64,000 bases of DNA from Pirellulales bacterium. GTDB lineage: Bacteria; Planctomycetota; Planctomycetia; Pirellulales; JADZDJ01. Location: the NCBI GenBank assembly GCA_035656635.1, contig DASRSD010000099.1, forward strand, positions 2 through 64,001. Direction: 5' to 3'. A program made the translations under genes and the position numbers. Positions 804-58,773 of this stretch are shown piece by piece (the stretch's first letter is position 1; each line of letters opens with the position of its first letter). Below the pieces are notes generated by a model. The model saw only the letters and a program-made list of their open reading frames with translations. It made no database searches and was not told the origin of the DNA.

Positions 804-2840
804 CTAATTTGCCGCGACAACACCCTGTTCCTGTGAAGGTGCGGTCAGAGATTTGAGAAACTCCACTAATTGGGCCCGCTCTTCCGGTTTGAGCATGAAG
901 AACTGCTTGGCCGAGTTGCTGGCTTCGCCCCCGTGGAAGGCAATGGCCTGCTCCAGGGTCTCCGCCCGGCCGTCGTGCAGGTAGGGGCCGGAATCGCGCA
1001 CGCCCCATAGCGGCGGAGTGCGCCACTCCTGGCGCAGTGCGCCGAAAGTTTTTTCACGGTCCGCTTTCGTCAGATGCTGCGGGCCGCCATTGGGCATATT
1101 GAATTGGGCCTGCAAGCTGGGAATGGGTTCTTCCTGTTGTTCTTCCTCCGGCGTATCGGGCACAAACACGCCGTAATTGCCGGAATCGCCCAATTCGGAC
1201 CCCATGTCATGCAACAGCAAGTCGCTGTAAATGCCGACGACGTTGCCCAATTTTTCCGCGTGGCAGTTGGCACATCCGACGGCGGCAAATTGTTTTTCGC
1301 CGACGGAGAGTATTTTGGCCTCCGCGGCGCTGGCAGGTTGATGCCGTACCGGCGCCGGCAAGTTGCCTAAGTAACTGACTAGTGCCACGCACTCCGCCTC
1401 GTCCATGTCGTGCCCCTGAGGCTTGTATTTGGGATCCGACGGCAGGCCGGCCTGGGGATGATCGGGCACATCCAACCCCAACTCGACGGCGCAGGCGGTC
1501 ATGGCAAATTCGTACAGCGATGCTTTTTGGTCTTTCCAACCGAAGCGGCCAATTTTGCCATCCTTCATTTTGGCCACGCGGCCCTGAATTTCGGGGAAGC
1601 CCTTGAATTCCTTTTTCGCCTGGTCGATCAGCACTTGATCGGGAATTTGGTCGATGAGCCCCACGCCAAACAGGGCCGTGGGATTGCGCCGCGAGCGAAT
1701 GAAGGAGAAATCGCCCACCTGCCCCTGCAAGCCTTGGGCCTGGGTCATTTGCGCCTGCATTTTGAGTTGCTGCATTTTTTGTTCGGCATCCACGCTGCTG
1801 ACCACTTTGATTTGAACGACGGGGGCAGGTGTGGTCGCTTGGTTGGCAGGCGCTAAAGCCGCGGTGTCCTGTGGGTCGGTGAAGGACGAATCATCAATTG
1901 CCATCACATTCGCATTGATACCGAACTGTCCCAGCCCCAGCATTTGCACGCGCCAGGCATCGTATTTTTCGTCCGTGGAAAAGCGATGTAACACCACGCT
2001 GCGGGCCGACAAAAAGCCGGGATGAATTTTGGCGAGTTCTGCTTTTTGGCGTTTGATTTCCGCGAGTTTTTCCTCGGGGCCAGGTTGGGCGGCAGGCTGC
2101 GCCGCGGGCGCCGCCGCTCCAGTTGGTTGGGCGGCAGGCGTGGGTACAGCGGCGGTTTGCTCGGTGGCAGGTGCAATTGCGGGAGTACTTGGAGCAGCCG
2201 GCGTGGCCGGGGAAGCAGCGACAGGCGGTGTTGCGTTGACCGCGGCCGGCTGAGCGGCATCGCTCGGCGCTGGCTGGCCGTCGCCGACGACCGTTACCTG
2301 GATATTGCCGGACGGTGGATTCGCCGTGGCGGCAGGTAGTGTATTGCTGTTTTGCGGCGCTTGATTGCGGGTGGTAAGCGTCAATGTTCCGCTACTTACT
2401 GTCACCGTGCCTGGAGTTGCCGGTTGACGGTTTTCGCCTTGGCTCAGGCTGTCGACAAAGACATTCAAAATCATGCCGGGCAACGTTTGCACGGCGGGCT
2501 GTTCCATTTGAGCGGCCTGCTGTTGCCGCACAGGATTGCTGAAGGCAGTGATGATGTCGACGTTTTTGCTCGCCGGTCCACCGCCGCCGGAGCCGCCTTG
2601 GTTATGGCAGGCCACGCAGGAGCTATCGTTAAAGACTGGTCCCAAGCCATCGCCGCCGTGAGAGCGCGGATCGTTGGGAAGCCATTCGCGCTGGAACAAC
2701 TCTTTGCCATCGGGTTTTGAAGCGCTAACCGCAACGTTATCCGGCGCCGCACCTGGCTCAGCCTGTGCGATCAATGCCAGGCCGATAACCGCCAAACCGC
2801 TCGCCGCCACCACGCAATAGAATTTAGATGTCGTGGCCAT
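804..2840 (-). CDS. DUF1111-type di-haem cytochrome c oxidoreductase, secreted, with long low-complexity linker
   Basis: 678-aa ORF; hydrophobic N-terminus; two CxxCH motifs (CVACH, CANCH); GDGLGPVFNDSSCVACHNQGG block typical of DUF1111. Confidence 0.7.
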   Translation of the reverse strand: MATTSKFYCVVAASGLAVIGLALIAQAEPGAAPDNVAVSASKPDGKELFQREWLPNDPRSHGGDGLGPVFNDSSCVACHNQGGSGGGGPASKNVDIITAFSNPVRQQQAAQMEQPAVQTLPGMILNVFVDSLSQGENRQPATPGTVTVSSGTLTLTTRNQAPQNSNTLPAATANPPSGNIQVTVVGDGQPAPSDAAQPAAVNATPPVAASPATPAAPSTPAIAPATEQTAAVPTPAAQPTGAAAPAAQPAAQPGPEEKLAEIKRQKAELAKIHPGFLSARSVVLHRFSTDEKYDAWRVQMLGLGQFGINANVMAIDDSSFTDPQDTAALAPANQATTPAPVVQIKVVSSVDAEQKMQQLKMQAQMTQAQGLQGQVGDFSFIRSRRNPTALFGVGLIDQIPDQVLIDQAKKEFKGFPEIQGRVAKMKDGKIGRFGWKDQKASLYEFAMTACAVELGLDVPDHPQAGLPSDPKYKPQGHDMDEAECVALVSYLGNLPAPVRHQPASAAEAKILSVGEKQFAAVGCANCHAEKLGNVVGIYSDLLLHDMGSELGDSGNYGVFVPDTPEEEQQEEPIPSLQAQFNMPNGGPQHLTKADREKTFGALRQEWRTPPLWGVRDSGPYLHDGRAETLEQAIAFHGGEASNSAKQFFMLKPEERAQLVEFLKSLTAPSQEQGVVAAN

Positions 2841-3084
2841 AATTCGCTTCTCCAGAAGAGCTTGGAAGCCGCGCAGAATAAAGCCTCACGATAGCACCCG
2901 CATTATAGGAAGTACCCAGCCTCCAGAGCAACAGTTTCGTTTGTAACAACCTTGTCAAATGTTCCGACGGCTGTATTCCCTCTGTAAACTTATCGGGCGT
3001 CGGCGGGTGGCAACCCGGCGATGAAACGCTGTAAATCGGGTATGATTGCAGATTGGAAGCCCCGCATTGCTATCGCCGTCCTCC

Positions 3085-12709: not shown

Positions 12710-14887
12710 TTAAGCTAAACGAACTCCGGAAAATTTTTCGACCACCACGCGGCAATCGGGAAGCGAGCCCAGAAACGTTTTTCCATACGGCTTGGTGCGC
12801 AGCCGCGGATCGAGGATCACCACCATTCCCGTGTCGGTTTTCGTCCGAATGAGCCGGCCGAAGCCTTGCTTCAATTTGAGCACGGCCTCCGGCAGTTGAT
12901 AATCGACAAACGGATTGCCCCCGGCCGAGCGGATGGCCTCCAGCCGCGCTTCCAACAGCGGACGGTCGGGCACGCTGAAGGGGAGCTTGGTGATGATGAC
13001 GTTTTGCAGCGCGTCTCCGGGCACGTCCACCCCTTGCCAGAAACTATCGGTGCCCAACAGCACGCTGCGGGGATTTTTTTTGAACTGTGCCAGCAATTGG
13101 CTGCGTGGCGCGCCGTCGGCTTGTGATAACAGCGACAAATTATGCTCGGCTAGCCAGGGCGTGAGGGCGGCGGCCGTGCGACGAAGCATTTCATAGCTGG
13201 TGAACAGCACAAACGCATGGCCATCGGTGCGGGACACGTAGCGGCGAATCATTTCCTCGCACGCCTGCTGATACGCCTGCGCATCGCTGGGATCGGGCAG
13301 GCCCTCGGGCAGAATCAATTGCACCTGTCGTTGGTAATCGAAGGGACTGCCCAAGCGAAGGCAGGCCGATTGGGTGAGGCCAATGCGGGTTTTGAAGTAA
13401 TCGAAAGCGGGATCGGGACCGCCGACATTCTTTCCAGGCTTAGTGCTCCGCGCCGCAGACTCCGCGTCGCGGCTAAACGGCTTTGATCCACTGACCGTAA
13501 GCGTGGCGCTGGTCATAATGACGCTGGGCACCACGTCGAATAGTTGTTCCCGCAGGGCGGGGCCAACATCGATGGGTGCTGCGCACAGCGCGAACCGTTT
13601 GTGGCCGCGGCGCGATTTGGTCCGCTCGATCCAATAGACGGCCTCGGGCAAATCTTGCTTGATCCAGGTTTCGATTTCGGCGGCGATGCCCCGCAAACGC
13701 TCGGCGACGGAATTGAAATCGAAGCGCTCTTTGTCATCCTTGAATTTTTCGCCGTGCTGGCGGACCAGACGCGAAAGTTTATCGAGCGCCGGGCTGAGCA
13801 AGTTGGGCACGATGTCGGGCTTGGTTACGCGGCCGTTGGCGCCGTCGTCGAGCCACTGGTCAACGTCGTGGAAGAAATCGTCGGCCCGTACTCGGCAGCG
13901 TTCTACTTCCTGCTGGGCGTCGCCCAATTTGTAATGCACCAGCAGGCCGCGATTACTGCGGTCGTTGTAAAGCTTGTTGAGCGTGTACTCAATGGCTCTG
14001 GAGGAAATGCCCAGGCCTAAATGATCGCCGGCCACGCCTTCGACGGTGTGGGCTTCGTCGAGAATGGCGACATCGTAATTGGGCAAAATACTGGCGCCCG
14101 CGCGGCGAAGAGCCAGATCGCTGAAAAATAGGGCGTGATTGACGACCAAAATTTGTGCGTGGCTGGCGCGGCGACGGGCTTGGTAATAAAAGCAATCGGC
14201 ATAGGTCGGGCAGTTGCGGCCCATGCAGTTGCCGCTGTCGCTGGTAATTTCGTCCCAGACACTGTCGATGGGGCGGAAGGAAAGATCGGCCAGCGAGCCA
14301 TCGGGAGATTGTTGCGACCAGCGGCCGAGTTCGCCCAGTTGCTCCAGTTCTTCATCGACCAGGAACAAATTCCGGGCCCGATCTTGCGCCGCGTTCAGTC
14401 GCCGCCGACTGAGATAATTGTGCCGGCCTTTCACCAGCACCGCCGTGAATTCCTGCGGCATGACGGAGCGGAGCAGAGGAATATCTTTTTGGACAAGCTG
14501 CTCCTGTAGCGCAATGGTATGCGTGGAAACCACAATGCGGCGGATGGGACGCGGTTGGCTGCCGTCCGGTGCGCTCGCTCCGCTGCGCGGACTCCGCGTC
14601 GCGGCTAAACGAGGAGAACCGGCGGTTGAATCGGCATGACGGGCATCGGGTTCTTCGTCTTCGTCATTCGTGGGCGGCGGTTCAGCGGTGACAGCGAGAA
14701 TGGCCGGTACCAAATACGCAAAGCTTTTGCCGACGCCAGTGCCGGCTTCGACCATGAGATGCCGGCGACCTTCGATCGCCGCGGCCACAGCCTGCGCCAT
14801 TTCCAATTGTTGGGGCCGCTGTTCGTAACCGGTTAGCCGCGCCGCAATGCGCCCCTGCGGACCGAGAATTTCAACAGGATCGATCAT
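12710..14887 (-). CDS. dinG: ATP-dependent DNA helicase, DinG/Rad3 family
   Basis: ATG at 14887 ([12 protein letters not shown]); [16 protein letters not shown] Walker [14 protein letters not shown] box, Cys cluster [13 protein letters not shown]-terminal [13 protein letters not shown] and KQGFGRLIR motifs. Confidence 0.85.
13445..13479 (+). repeat. REP-like element copy inside dinG (read as PFSRDAES on coding strand)
   Basis: gctccgcgccgcaGACTCCGCGTCGCGGCTAAACG; the 22-nt core is identical to 14590-14611. Confidence 0.85.
14577..14611 (+). repeat. REP-like element copy inside dinG (read as RLAATRSP on coding strand)
   Basis: gctccgctgcgcgGACTCCGCGTCGCGGCTAAACG; 32/35 identical to 13445-13479, different reading frame. 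Confidence 0.85.
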
Positions 14888-53935: not shown

Positions 53936-53940
53936 CTTAC

Positions 53941-53985
53941 TTCAAATCCACCGTCCAGTAGGCGTTGTCGACGAAGGTTTTTCGG
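53941..53985 (-). pseudogene. relic copy of the 3' end of the HNH endonuclease gene
   Basis: about 41/45 identical to 55718-55762; minus strand still reads KTFVDNAYWTVDLK-stop versus KTFVDSAYWTVDLK-stop in the intact gene. Confidence 0.8.
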
Positions 53986-54036: not shown

Positions 54037-54080
54037 ATTAAAACAGCGGCACCCCTGCGTGGCCGCAGAGGCTAAGCGGG
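54037..54080 (+). repeat. REP copy 1 (stem variant CTGCG/CGCAG)
   Basis: attaaaacagcggcacccCTGCGtggcCGCAGaggctaagcggg. Confidence 0.85.
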
Positions 54081-54135
54081 ATCGGCAGGGCGCGGCGGCG
54101 AAGGGGTGAATGGCTGCTGCGCGAACTAAGCCGGA

Positions 54136-54603
54136 TTACGCCACTGTGAAATCCCAGCCGGAAAGAACCAGGCTGGGCAGCAATTCGGGATTGTGGCTGA
54201 CGAGCTTGATTTCGATCGACCGCGGGCCGGCGGGAATTTTCAATTCCGCTTCGTAGGTGGCGCACCACTGCGTTTCGTCTTCGAACGGCTCCTCGGCCTG
54301 GTCGCGAGGAATGTAATCGTCGTCCACAAAGACCAACTCCTCAACCAGCTTGGCGGGCACCCAATCGGCGTGCGATTGCACATCGTCCTGATCGGTCGGG
54401 TTGTTGGGGTCGCCTATCCGCACGAAAATTTCCGCTTCGTCGAACGGGCCGTAAGAATTGGAATGCGTAATGCGGACCGTGGTGGGCCCGGCGGCGGTGG
54501 GCTGTTCCGGAATGGTGATGCCCTGTATTTCGGATTCGGCCGGCAGCTCCCAAAAGTTGGGCGAATCAGAAACCATTTTGTGCGTGGCGGCATTGGGGCT
54601 CAT
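54136..54603 (-). CDS. hypothetical acidic protein (passenger between REP copies)
   Basis: ATG at 54603 (MSPNAATHKMVSDSPNFWELP...); 155 aa; no family recognised. Confidence 0.5.
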   Translation of the reverse strand: MSPNAATHKMVSDSPNFWELPAESEIQGITIPEQPTAAGPTTVRITHSNSYGPFDEAEIFVRIGDPNNPTDQDDVQSHADWVPAKLVEELVFVDDDYIPRDQAEEPFEDETQWCATYEAELKIPAGPRSIEIKLVSHNPELLPSLVLSGWDFTVA

Positions 54604-54728
54604 ACGCGGTCCTCGCTGGTCAGTAAATGAGATGAGAATTTGAGACAGGACGCGAAGGCGAACGCCGGCTGTTATCGCGCGCGGCGAAGCCAGATGCAAG
54701 TGTTGTGGGACCGGGGAAATTAAAACAG

Positions 54729-54770
54729 ATTAAAACGGCAGGACCCCGCGTGGCCGCGGGGGCTAAGCGA
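54729..54770 (+). repeat. REP copy 2
   Basis: attaaaacggcaggaCCCCGCGtggcCGCGGGGgctaagcga; left end ATTAAAACAG duplicated at 54719-54728. Confidence 0.85.
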
Positions 54771-54922
54771 ATGAGTGGCGGGGGCTAAGCGGGTTCGGGG
54801 CAAAGCGGTATGATATGGGCCGCGAGGGCCAAGCGGGAGGATGGAGTGGCGAGGGGCAAAAAAATGAGGCGGTTGGAAATTCATGGTTAGCCCGGTCGGC
54901 CACGACCGGTGGAGCATTCGCA

Positions 54923-55630
54923 ATGTCGCGACCGGTAATTGGTTACCATTCGATTTTCGGCGCGTATGGATTTTGGCTTCCGAATGATCCCCGCGGGTCA
55001 TGGTCAGAGGTTGTGAAAGCCGAGCACTTGAAACCCTTTGGGGAACCGATTCATCCTGGCACGCGACACTCGGTTGCAAATCGAAAACACGATTCAGCCC
55101 TGCGGCTTGCGGCGAAACAACATCTGCTGCGGAAGAATGTCACATTCCGCGACGACCAAATTGAATGTCTGGCTGGCGGTTTTGGTGAATTGATCCGGCA
55201 AATAAAACTCGTCGTGTTTGCATTGGCGATCATGCCGGACCATGTGCACTTGGTTTATCCTCGACCCGAATGCGATGCGGAGGAATTTGTGGGCATGCTG
55301 AAGCGCGCGGGATCCAGGGCGCTGCGGAAAGCGGGGCTGCATCCGTTTGGCAAGGTCGATGATACCCGCGCGAAAGGTGAAAGCAGAACCGCTTGCGTGG
55401 ACGCGGGTGAAGCGGACGAAGAAATATCCCGCGTGGACGCGGGGGCTAAGCGGGAGAGGCGGTTGCCCACACCATGGGCCGAGAAAGCCTGGCACGTTTA
55501 TTTACACGACAAGCAGGAAATACGGCACAGGATTGGATACGTAGTGCAGAATCCCATCCAAGCGGGCAGGCCCGCGCAGCATTGGGATTTCGTGACGGCG
55601 TTTCACGATACGCCGCGTGGTTGCGGGTAA
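54923..55630 (+). CDS. REP-associated tyrosine transposase (RAYT; IS200-like Y1 HUH family)
   Basis: ATG at 54923 after GGAG; HUH motif MPDHVHLV; C-terminal catalytic-Tyr helix RIGYVVQNPIQAG; flanked by REPs. Confidence 0.8.
   Translation: MSRPVIGYHSIFGAYGFWLPNDPRGSWSEVVKAEHLKPFGEPIHPGTRHSVANRKHDSALRLAAKQHLLRKNVTFRDDQIECLAGGFGELIRQIKLVVFALAIMPDHVHLVYPRPECDAEEFVGMLKRAGSRALRKAGLHPFGKVDDTRAKGESRTACVDAGEADEEISRVDAGAKRERRLPTPWAEKAWHVYLHDKQEIRHRIGYVVQNPIQAGRPAQHWDFVTAFHDTPRGCG
55389..55454 (+). repeat. two REP copies inside the RAYT ORF
   Basis: ccgcttGCGTGGACGCgggtgaagcgg (55389-55415) and cCCGCGTGGACGCGGgggctaagcggg (55428-55454), translated ACVDAGEAD and SRVDAGAKR. Confidence 0.85.
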
Positions 55631-55632
55631 GG

Positions 55633-55715
55633 AAATAACCCCGCGTGGCCGCATGCGATTAATTCCCCGCGTGGCCGCGGGGGCTAAGCGGGATGACAGG
55701 TTGCGGGGGCTAAGC
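55633..55715 (+). repeat. REP copies 5 and 6 plus a half copy abutting the HNH stop codon
   Basis: aaataaCCCCGCGtggcCGCatgcg / attaattCCCCGCGtggcCGCGGGGgctaagcgg / gcgggggctaagc. Confidence 0.85.
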
Positions 55716-56347
55716 TATTTCAAATCGACGGTCCAGTAGGCGCTGTCGACGAAGGTTTTCCAGCTTTCGTACTTGGGGTTATCGAGCTTCACGGACAATA
55801 GCGGGCTGCGCTTCGGCTTAATTGGCGGGCGGACCAATTTCATGTGCGCTTCGTGCGGCGTGCGGCCCCCTTTGCGCACGTTGCAGTTGACGCAGGCGCA
55901 CACCACGTTTTCCCAACTGGTTTCGCCGCCGCGGCTGCGGGGCATGATGTGATCTAAGCTCAATTCGCTGGTTGGGAACACTTTGCCGCAATATTGGCAA
56001 TGGTTGCCGTCGCGGGCAAACAGATTGCGGCGGTTGAAGCGCAGCGTTTGCCGCGGCACTTTATCGTAAGAGAGCAGCCGGATGACGCGCGGGGCTTGCA
56101 GCTCGAAATTGACAGCGCGAATCCAATCTTCGTGCTGCTGCTTGCAGGCGGCCCGCATGGTGCTGATTTCCAACCAGGTTTCGAAGTTGTAGTTGGCGTA
56201 TTGGCCTTCTTCGAAATGAATGACTTCGGCCAGCTCGCGGAACAACAGTCCCAAGGCCCGGCGGACGTTGATGACGTGCACCGCCATGTAAAACCGGTTG
56301 AGCACCAACACGCTGGAACTAAGCCCGCCTTGAGCAAATGCCGTCAT
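55715..56347 (-). CDS. HNH endonuclease
   Basis: HCQYCGK...LSLDHIMPRSRGGETSWENVVCACVNCNVRKG (HNH with CxxC pairs); 210 aa. Confidence 0.88.
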   Translation of the reverse strand: MTAFAQGGLSSSVLVLNRFYMAVHVINVRRALGLLFRELAEVIHFEEGQYANYNFETWLEISTMRAACKQQHEDWIRAVNFELQAPRVIRLLSYDKVPRQTLRFNRRNLFARDGNHCQYCGKVFPTSELSLDHIMPRSRGGETSWENVVCACVNCNVRKGGRTPHEAHMKLVRPPIKPKRSPLLSVKLDNPKYESWKTFVDSAYWTVDLK

Positions 56348-56560
56348 GCAAAAGCCTCCGCCGCTTGATCAATCAACAAAATCTTCCAAGCAAGGTCGGC
56401 TTTGACCGGTCAGTACGGGCCCAAAACGCTTTTTGCGGCAAGCCGTACACGGTCTAATTTACAGCCAACCCGCCATTGAATTTGCGTCGCTATTTATTGT
56501 AACTGGCGAGGGTGTAACAAACCAGTCTTGTTTGGGGTGCCCGAAGCGAGTATGGAGAAA

Positions 56561-56602
56561 GCGGTAGGCGGTAGGCGGCGGGCAGTAGGCAGCAGGCAGT
56601 GG
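56561..56602 (+). repeat. heptanucleotide tandem array, 6 units GC(G/A)G(T/C)(A/G)G
   Basis: GCGGTAG GCGGTAG GCGGCGG GCAGTAG GCAGCAG GCAGTGG. Confidence 0.85.
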
Positions 56603-56619
56603 GGAAAGTGGATGGTTAT

Positions 56620-57396: not shown

Positions 57397-57599
57397 AAGT
57401 GATTTTTTTGAAACTGCTGGCGCTAAGCAGTTGGCGGTAGGCGGCCGCCGGCTGGCTCGGTTGAAGCGCTGCGAATGAATTGGTCCACGGCTGTGGCTGT
57501 TGGGCATCTCTAGGCAATTGGCATGCGCGAGGCGCCGCTGCTTGTGAGCGCCGGGGCGTGCCGCTAAAATTGCGACTTGCGCGGCGGTGATTTTTTCAC

Positions 57600-57634
57600 G
57601 CTCCGCTTGCGCATCGCGGCTAAACCGCAAGCGG
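57600..57634 (+). repeat. third copy of the dinG-type element, as a 9-bp hairpin
   Basis: gctCCGCTTGCGcatcgcggctaaacCGCAAGCGG; shares GCTCCGC and TCGCGGCTAAAC with the 13445 and 14577 copies. Confidence 0.7.
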
Positions 57635-57696
57635 ATAGATGCCAACGTGTCGAATCGTCTCTTGATTCTCGACCCTCAACCCTGAGCCCTGCTTTC

Positions 57697-58773
57697 ATGT
57701 CCACTCTGAAATTGGCCGTAATTCCCGGCGACGGCACCGGGCCGGAAGTGACCGCCGAAGCCCTCAAAGTGCTGAACGCCGTGGCCCCGCTGGAAAATTT
57801 TAAGTACGAAACCACGCCTTTCGATTGGGGCTGCGAGCGATATTTGAAAACCAAGGAAACGCTGCCGGCCGGCGGCGCCGACGAGCTGCGAAAATTCAAC
57901 GCCGTGTTTTTGGGCGCCGTGGGCCATCCCGACGTGGCGCCGGGCATTATCGAAAAAGGGCTGCTGTTGGCGCTGCGATTCGAGCTGGATCAGTATATTA
58001 ACTTGCGGCCGGTGCAATTGTTCCCCGGCGTGGAAACTCCGCTGGCGGGCAAGGGACCGAAGGACATCGATTTTGTCGTCGTCCGCGAGAACACGGAAGA
58101 TTTGTATTGCGGCGTGGGGGGATTTCTCAAAAAAAACACGCCCGACGAAGTGGCCACGCAAGCCGCCGTGTATACCCGCAAGGGTTGCGAGCGCTGCATT
58201 CGCTGGGCGTTTGAGTACACCCGCAAGCGGAATAATCCCAAGGGAAAAATGCTGACGCTGGTAGCCAAAACCAACGTGCTGACCTTCGGGCACGATTTAT
58301 GGTGGCGGGCCTTTCAGGCCGTGGCGAAAGATTACCCCGACGTGAAGGCCGATTACAACCACGTGGATGCCTGCTGCATGTGGATGGTGAAATCGCCGGA
58401 ATATTACGACGTAATTGTCACCACGAACATGTTCGGCGACATCATCACGGATTTGGGGGCGATGATTCAGGGCGGCCTGGGCGTGGCGGCCGGCGGGAAT
58501 ATCAATCCCGATCCGGGCGGCGTGAGCATGTACGAGCCGATGGGAGGCAGCGCGCCCAAGTACACCGGGCAGAACGTCATCAACCCCATCGCCGCCGTGG
58601 GCGCGATGAGCATGCTTTTGGAACATTCAGGCCAACCGAAAGCCGCGGCCCGGGTGATGAAGGCCATCAAGCAAGTGACGGGCACGAAAATGAAAAGCCA
58701 GGCCGCCGGCAAAATGGGCTACAGCACCACGCAGGTCGGCGACTTGGTGTGCGAGGCGATGGTGAAGGGGTAG
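57697..58773 (+). CDS. isocitrate/isopropylmalate dehydrogenase family enzyme (3-isopropylmalate or tartrate dehydrogenase-like)
   Basis: ATG at 57697; [61 protein letters not shown]. Confidence 0.75.
   Translation: MSTLKLAVIPGDGTGPEVTAEALKVLNAVAPLENFKYETTPFDWGCERYLKTKETLPAGGADELRKFNAVFLGAVGHPDVAPGIIEKGLLLALRFELDQYINLRPVQLFPGVETPLAGKGPKDIDFVVVRENTEDLYCGVGGFLKKNTPDEVATQAAVYTRKGCERCIRWAFEYTRKRNNPKGKMLTLVAKTNVLTFGHDLWWRAFQAVAKDYPDVKADYNHVDACCMWMVKSPEYYDVIVTTNMFGDIITDLGAMIQGGLGVAAGGNINPDPGGVSMYEPMGGSAPKYTGQNVINPIAAVGAMSMLLEHSGQPKAAARVMKAIKQVTGTKMKSQAAGKMGYSTTQVGDLVCEAMVKG

Follow-up and report, generated by a model that had tools for sequence, protein, structure and literature searches.

Two copies of a dispersed, RAYT-associated repeat lie in the linkers of a planctomycete dinG gene and are read in different frames

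Results

Two copies of one repeat within dinG

The window analyzed here is a 64,000-nucleotide stretch of contig DASRSD010000099.1 from a Pirellulales bacterium. Its minus strand carries dinG, a gene for a DinG/XPD-family helicase, which contains two copies (A and B) of a short DNA repeat (Table 1). The 725-residue product has the Pfam domains DEAD and Helicase_C_2 and matches E. coli DinG (PDB 6FWR) with E = 5e-48. It is identical to a database protein (P0001) from a Pirellulales metagenome-assembled genome (MAG) (Joint Genome Institute [JGI] metagenome 3300036855, contig Ga0376680_0000097). Both copies contain the 22-mer GACTCCGCGTCGCGGCTAAACG (13458–13479 and 14590–14611, plus strand), which occurs exactly twice in the window; no further match was found there when up to three mismatches were allowed, and none of 100 shuffles contained it. 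Extended by their flanks (13445–13479 and 14577–14611), the copies agree at 32 of 35 positions.

The copies have the same orientation and lie 1132 nt apart. Since 1132 leaves a remainder of 1 when divided by 3, their phases are one nucleotide apart, and on the coding strand they are translated as RLAATRSP and PFSRDAES. Copy B accounts for 15 residues (93–107), about 38 residues past the Walker A motif, and copy A for 14 residues (470–483) between SATLTVSG and FDYFK. All of these points (the identical 22-mers, the flanking match, the frame offset, and the two sites) are as given in a preliminary description of the window made from the sequence alone. Its view that the duplication is one of DNA also holds: the copies are different phases of the same dispersed repeat, and a repeat at the level of protein is excluded because they are read in different frames.

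A repeat family dispersed across Planctomycetota

The preliminary description had proposed a search for the repeat beyond the window. The 18-nt core CCGCGTCGCGGCTAAACG was scanned exactly in one genome per prokaryotic species and found at no fewer than 120 genome loci, at least 120 being set against about 17 chance matches estimated from the size of the collection on the assumption of equal base frequencies. Among the matches listed, 109 of the 120 loci carry Planctomycetota labels (Gemmataceae, Zavarzinella, Limnoglobus, Isosphaera, Planctomycetaceae, Pirellulales, and Lacipirellula). At least 13 contigs with the core come from a single MAG (LejiaF_58_20) and at least 11 from Isosphaera PR.3.33. 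The dinG segments therefore belong to a dispersed repeat family, which we call family 1; over 36 nt, both share 94–97% identity with copies from elsewhere, and copy A is one mismatch from the Isosphaera variant GCTCCGCTCCGCAGACTCCGCG. The family matched viral contigs only once. Full planctomycete-type units with the left arm were also seen in MAGs labeled "uncultured Alcaligenaceae" (L058, L080, L096, and L115), where either mis-binning or transfer could be responsible.

Conservation reaches about 20 nt to the left of the core and ends right after ..CTAAACG. Written tag first, the consensus unit of about 38 nt is CGTTTAGCCGCGACGCGGAGTCYTCGGAGCGGAGCGCG, with the architecture CGTTTAGCC-GCGACGCGGAGTCYTCGGAGCGGAGCGCG; it includes an 11-nt palindrome, CCGCGTCGCGG. 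The left arm GCGCTCCGC... is present in 114 of 134 usable copies; variants of the arm exist, one of them short. Inverted pairs, some 50–70 nt apart, are common, and the inverted dimer forms a perfect 41-bp hairpin (−65 kcal/mol, z = −16). Of 136 copies, 74 have no spanning open reading frame (ORF) of at least 50 residues on both sides. Many abut the stop codon of a neighboring gene, and the TAG within the tag is often that stop codon. Judged by these positions, family-1 copies are mostly extragenic and close to the 3′ ends of genes.

This tag also limits how a unit can be translated. Tag first, frame 1 gives 12 open residues, frame 2 a valine followed by a stop, and frame 3 FSRDAESSERSA; in the opposite orientation the open frames give one 12-residue peptide and ALRSEDSASRLN. 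The frames seen in DinG are the sole tolerable ones in their orientation because the third contains the TAG of the TTAG tag.

A profile hidden Markov model (HMM), built from 114 family members that all come from other genomes, detected three family-1 copies within the window. The third is degenerate and intergenic, upstream of the conserved part of an ORF at 57577–58773. Short tandem repeats of the GGCGGTA/GGCAGTA type (56559–56604 and 57411–57456) are its intergenic neighbors. The 3′ end of dinG itself (12710–12725, ..GTT CGT TTA GCT TAA) contains the REP-tag 8-mer CGTTTAGC in the RLA frame, followed by the stop codon. This 8-mer may be what is left of a third unit, or it may have arisen by chance; no further similarity to the repeat was found downstream of the dinG end beyond it. 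A scan of 12–16 kb against Rfam (E ≤ 1) returned one chance microRNA match and nothing at the copies.

These data bear on two alternatives. One is a chance or compositional match between GC-rich, low-complexity stretches, or a repeat at the protein level. Both dinG stretches are indeed of low complexity, and the window shows no enrichment for CCGCG..CGCGG palindromes (7, with 4.8 expected). Against this stand the shuffles, HMM E-values of 1e-11 to 1e-13, and the recurrence of a 36-nt string in more than 100 foreign loci; with the protein-level variant excluded by the reading frames, we regard the probability of this explanation as negligible. A CRISPR repeat was rejected as well, since there is no array, and so were an intron and an intein, for which the units are too short.

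The other is a single insertion followed by a local copying event, whether a short-range hop, template switching, or intragenic duplication or conversion. It would account simply for two pristine copies 1132 nt apart, in one gene and in one orientation, with an identical 22-nt core, and double insertions in one ORF have been reported for uvrA and uvrB (Di Nocera et al., 2013; PMC3733652). The core, however, is nearly invariant throughout the family, so its identity is silent on recency. The left arms disagree at 3 of their 13 positions, and the family variants to which they come within one mismatch (..CCGCAGACT and ..CCGCGGACT) are not the same. An identity of 22 nt is also short for recombinational conversion. 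We consider local copying unlikely; there were probably two separate insertion events.

Association with RAYT genes

The window encodes a Y1/HUH transposase of the type associated with repetitive extragenic palindromic (REP) elements, a REP-associated tyrosine transposase (RAYT). Its ORF spans 54815–55630, with a likely start at 54923 from comparison with homologues. The protein scores 25.1 bits against Pfam Y1_Tnp (cutoff 23), and its 2806 homologues have the JGI name "REP element-mobilizing transposase RayT". Four hairpin REPs of the form CCCCGCG-TGGC-CGCGGGG-GCTAAGCGGG flank the gene. The hairpin CCCCGCG-GCCA-CGCGGGG of the unit at 54740–54783 has a folding energy of −10.3 kcal/mol (z = −2.1). 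The preliminary description had matched the dinG copies to these CCGCG-TGGC-CGCGG..GCTAAGCG elements. The resemblance in tag and core is real, but the elements are not the same: on the strength of the shared tag and the CCGCG..CGCGG core, we assign the REPs at the RAYT gene to a sister family (family 2).

The direct link between family 1 and RAYTs comes from other genomes. In one (L073), a RAYT gene (about 2448–3035) whose product is 39% identical to the window RAYT is bracketed by family-1 units at 2300–2340, 2385–2425, and 3040–3078. In another (L032), an inverted family-1 pair abuts the 3′ end of a RAYT gene, and the TAG of GTTTAGCC is the RAYT stop codon. Because it flanks RAYT genes in both, the dinG-type element is a RAYT-associated REP family with inverted doublets (REPINs). 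Three more RAYT homologues are flanked by REPs that have different stems and the tag CG[CT]TTAGCC. That tag is common to family 1, to the family-2 REPs of the window, and to the REPs of these three RAYTs.

Family-2 units were also seen in-frame inside the window RAYT gene (55396–55466), where they encode ACVDAGEA...SRVDAGAKRE. At least one such unit, (S/P)RV[DA]AGAKR, is present between LHPF and RLPTPWAE, in the corresponding loop, in each of the closest RAYT homologues (P0122–P0126). Most RAYT homologues are about 197 residues long, and the six of this length in the alignment have no insert in that loop. The RAYT gene, the four REPs, and an unknown ORF (54136–54699, minus strand) form a 1.78-kb island bracketed by a 44-nt direct repeat (53938–53981 and 55716–55759). 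The repeat is 91% identical, with mostly synonymous differences, and corresponds to the last 14 codons plus stop of an HNH endonuclease gene (55715–56347, minus strand). The island looks as though it inserted at the 3′ end of the HNH gene, bringing its own copy of that end. In another genome (L041), a family-1 REP abuts a gene end similar to that of the HNH gene of the window.

The copies occupy variable, predicted disordered linkers

As the preliminary description had suggested, the window DinG was compared with its orthologues. In an alignment of 29 sequences, both repeat sites fall in length-variable linkers between invariant helicase blocks, and on either side of each insert the dinG ORF is open and colinear with the 28 orthologues. 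The match to 6FWR spans both sides of linker 1. Peptides and linker lengths were surveyed in the 120 best orthologues (104 for linker 2 lengths). LAATR or SRDAE was found in none of the 119 others, P0001 being the only carrier among the best 120; the repeat-encoded peptides are thus lineage-specific. Linker 2 has 31 residues in the window protein and 5–8 residues in 78 of 104 orthologues. Linker 1 varies from 15 to 60 residues across the orthologues, and is about 50 residues long in the window protein versus about 5 in E. coli DinG. Compared with the nearest orthologue (L121, 81% identity), it has 14 extra codons, which fall where the REP unit lies. Inspected visually, this site shows a 45-nt block after the shared GGTTCTCCY. 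AlphaFold2, run with the 29-sequence alignment, gave pLDDT values below 50 and coil at residues 71–113 and 463–491, which are the two linkers. Both insertion sites are therefore predicted to be disordered loops compatible with the fold.

The loops of relatives hold other repeat DNA. At site 1, P0006 and P0007 have a palindrome, CCCTCTCC..GGAGAGGG (CCCTCACCCAACCCTCTCC..GGAGAGGG), encoding PLTQPSP..GEG. Site 2 of relatives holds heptamer runs, either (GGGTTCA)n (peptide GFRVQ) or (GCAGAAR)n (peptide QKAEGRK). The repeat-filled orthologous genes lie at L205:571–2814, L206:9093–11387, and L204:7691–9826. Because of these unrelated repeats, both DinG loops appear to act as recurrent landing pads. 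A search for decayed family-1 copies in the dinG genes of relatives gave as its best match site 2 of P0006, in the same orientation, which was not significant (E = 1.7). The REP core was absent from 0.9 Mb of metagenome sequence of DinG relatives, which among the matches listed are all at most 60% identical.

A mis-joined or collapsed contig could in principle mimic such a pattern. The sequence derives from a metagenome assembly, and short repeats can seed chimeras. The ORF runs continuously through both copies in register with its orthologues, and ThiS and ThiG adjoin dinG here as they do in L121 and L206. A repeat of 22–40 nt is also shorter than assembly k-mers and reads. An assembly artifact is accordingly a vanishingly improbable explanation.

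We also considered whether the units could be functional, either as cis-elements (binding sites for RAYT or another protein, or mRNA structure) or as an exapted linker that tunes the helicase. Both copies closely resemble the family consensus, in contrast to the highly diverged linker sequence around them, and copy A folds better than shuffles (z = −2.7; copy B, z = 0). The reported enrichment of intragenic REPs in repair genes (PMC3733652) would also be in keeping with a function. Such a role is not supported, because the copies are absent from all 119 orthologues, their different frames leave no common peptide, and as direct repeats they are unable to pair with each other. They belong to no Rfam family, and the unrelated repeats in the loops of relatives fit tolerance, not a specific need. 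We judge a functional role to be very unlikely; the inserts would instead be neutral passengers of the protein and its mRNA.

Copies within other genes

Nineteen long ORFs that span family-1 copies in other genomes were tested with Pfam. Domains on both sides of the copy were found only in a UvrA-like ORF and in a CopA-like ORF from two species. In the CopA-like P-type ATPase, present in two Pirellulales species, comparison with PDB 3rfu shows a clean insert of 10 codons (PFSRDAAAER) just after DKTGTLTEGKPKLISIE. Residues around 455–510 of this ATPase align poorly to 3rfu, and the gene or its assembly may contain frameshifts. The UvrA-like ORF (L091:3–6689, minus strand) is a 2229-residue open frame with two UvrA-like halves. 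The second half contains an inverted REP dimer, RDAESSKRS..SLRSEDSASRLN, and this stretch is 15 residues longer than in the first half, its paralogue, with 11 of the 15 in one gap. The REP-bearing uvrA genes in the literature offer a parallel. In both gene families, the Pfam and PDB comparisons establish the copies as truly in-gene.

That most of the other spanning ORFs are truly decorated genes was rejected, since 12 of the 19 have no Pfam domain. In four (L118, L112, L088, and L104) the copy precedes the first domain and probably also the true start; another (L105) is ambiguous. Most stop-to-stop ORFs that span a copy in these GC-rich genomes are spurious.

Table 1. Repeat units and associated genes in the window and in other genomes
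Feature	Position	Strand	Remarks
dinG, DinG/XPD-family helicase, 725 residues, start MIDPVE	12710..14887	−	ORF; identical to P0001; hosts both copies
REP family-1 unit, copy A, linker 2	13441..13480	−	nhmmer E = 3.5e-11; encodes 12 residues (470–481)
REP family-1 unit, copy B, linker 1	14567..14611	−	Coding strand CGTTTAGCCGCGACGCGGAGTCCGCGCAGCGGAGCGAGCGCACCG; nhmmer 14574–14612, E = 6e-13
REP family-1, third copy, degenerate, short-left-arm variant ACGCTCCGCTTGCGCATCGCGGCTAAAC	57597..57625	+	nhmmer E = 4.4e-4
RAYT (Y1/HUH, IS200-like transposase)	54923..55630	+	Pfam Y1_Tnp; motifs PDHVHLV (HUH) and IGYVVQNP (tyrosine)
Sister (family-2) REP CCCTGCGTGGCCGCAGAGGCTAAGCGGG, left edge of RAYT island	54049..54092	+	
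Family-2 REP CCCCGCGTGGCCGCGGGGGCTAAGCG, upstream of RAYT	54740..54783	+	
Family-2 REP, downstream of RAYT	55661..55704	+	
CopA-like P-type ATPase with REP insert	L049:3836–5890; L064:4449–5471	−; +	

Discussion

The account that we consider very probable holds that each segment is a solo unit of a REP/REPIN-type repeat that occurs in Planctomycetota and is associated with RAYTs, and that the units became embedded in two linkers of a DinG-family helicase, both of variable length and predicted to be disordered. The units would persist because these loops tolerate extra residues, because the reading frame was kept, and because neither unit is translated in the frame that contains TAG. Their likely source would be a Y1/HUH transposase acting on single-stranded DNA, with a RAYT as the mobilizing enzyme of the dinG units. 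The preliminary description had pictured REP-type elements colonizing a helicase gene as tolerated in-frame inserts, a proposal that is supported by the repeat family, its RAYT link, the lineage specificity of the peptides, the predicted disorder of the sites, the stop-free frames, the family-1 copies within CopA-like and UvrA-like genes, and the published intragenic REPs.

Several observations weigh against this account. Both pristine copies found in 64 kb lie in one gene, which has a probability of about 3% under random placement. The RAYT of the window is flanked by the sister family 2, not by family 1, and no family-1 copies were found in 75 kb around dinG of the five closest relatives. 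The fold of a single consensus unit does not surpass that of shuffled sequence (z = +1.4 and +0.9), which is unusual for a classical REP and may mean that the unit cannot move by itself. Because the unit of about 38 nt is not a multiple of three, insertion of a bare unit would shift the frame. The MAFFT DNA alignment splits the 42-nt excess at site 1 into three gaps with ambiguous boundaries, and since it lacks the single 45-nt gap seen by eye, we do not claim exact insert boundaries. Site 2 has no clean empty-site comparator because relatives hold unrelated inserts there. The earlier suggestion that both segments look like insertions thus stands as far as the lineage-specific, variable linkers are concerned, and is qualified by the boundaries and by site 2.

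A bolder scenario starts from an old, phylum-wide RAYT–REPIN partnership whose unit would repeatedly have been "exonized" into disordered loops of DNA-acting ATPases (DinG and the UvrA paralogue of L091) and into the RAYT gene itself. This would imply a targeting bias or a functional link with single-stranded DNA repair that goes beyond tolerance. We think it improbable, and favor passive tolerance of RAYT-associated units.

Understood as tolerated solo units, the dinG copies offer a clean, well-controlled case of selfish repeat DNA that becomes part of a protein in two stop-free frames. The repeat explains odd low-complexity stretches in planctomycete protein predictions, and should help annotators to tell spurious ORFs from truly decorated genes. 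It also defines a REP/REPIN family with a TTAG-type tag and a RAYT that is widespread in Planctomycetota. We found no description of this family, and in a literature search for its sequence strings none of the accessible papers contained the exact sequence.

Comparison with known systems

The closest precedent is provided by the REPs of the GTAG/CGTC super-families (Di Nocera, De Gregorio and Rocco, 2013, BMC Genomics 14:522; PMC3733652). These elements are RAYT-linked, mostly extragenic, and located near the 3′ ends of genes, where the tag supplies TAG stops; the minority found within ORFs add 7–30 residues in-frame. Enrichment of these intragenic elements is reported for genes of replication and repair (uvrA, uvrB, recB, dnaE2, and helicases); double insertions occur in uvrA and uvrB, and orthologous recB genes can carry different REPs at one site (PMC3733652). 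Because that study describes intragenic, repair-gene-enriched, and double REPs, the kind of event seen here, sometimes with two units per ORF, is already published. DinG joins these REP-bearing repair genes, and our data do not explain the bias toward repair genes. The DinG name was not found in the main text of PMC3733652, and neither DinG as host, a TTAG-tagged family, nor spread throughout Planctomycetota was found in that paper. The only planctomycete families found there are GTAG-20 and GTAG-21 of Rhodopirellula baltica, which encode other peptides. The dinG-type family resembles the published REPs in being short, RAYT-linked, mostly extragenic, able to supply TAG stops, and present twice in one ORF. 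It differs in its tag, which is TTAG (in CG[CT]TTAGCC) rather than GTAG, and in its single unit of about 38 nt, which lacks a convincing stem-loop of its own.

Classical REPIN–RAYT systems are those of Gammaproteobacteria, and their repeat sequences are specific to a species or genus. The core of the dinG-type family, in contrast, is near-invariant across MAGs labeled as several planctomycete families and orders, and sister REPs lie in-frame inside the RAYT gene itself, unlike in classical REPINs. In REPIN–RAYT systems, or REPtrons (Nunvar, 2010; Bertels and Rainey, 2011; Bertels et al., 2017), inverted doublets form long hairpins, a single-copy Y1/HUH gene is flanked by repeats, and solo units coexist with the doublets. 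The dinG-type family shares the inverted doublets, the RAYT-flanking units, and the solo units.

An older precedent, cited in PMC3733652, is provided by the Rickettsia palindromic elements (RPEs; Ogata et al., 2000). RPE-1 is a complete palindrome of 100–150 bp in obligate intracellular alphaproteobacteria, whereas the dinG inserts are half-units of 36–45 nt. We know of no RAYT association of RPE-1. RPEs are selfish palindromic DNA within functional protein genes, and the dinG units are like them in being selfish DNA placed in-frame where the protein fold can accommodate it.

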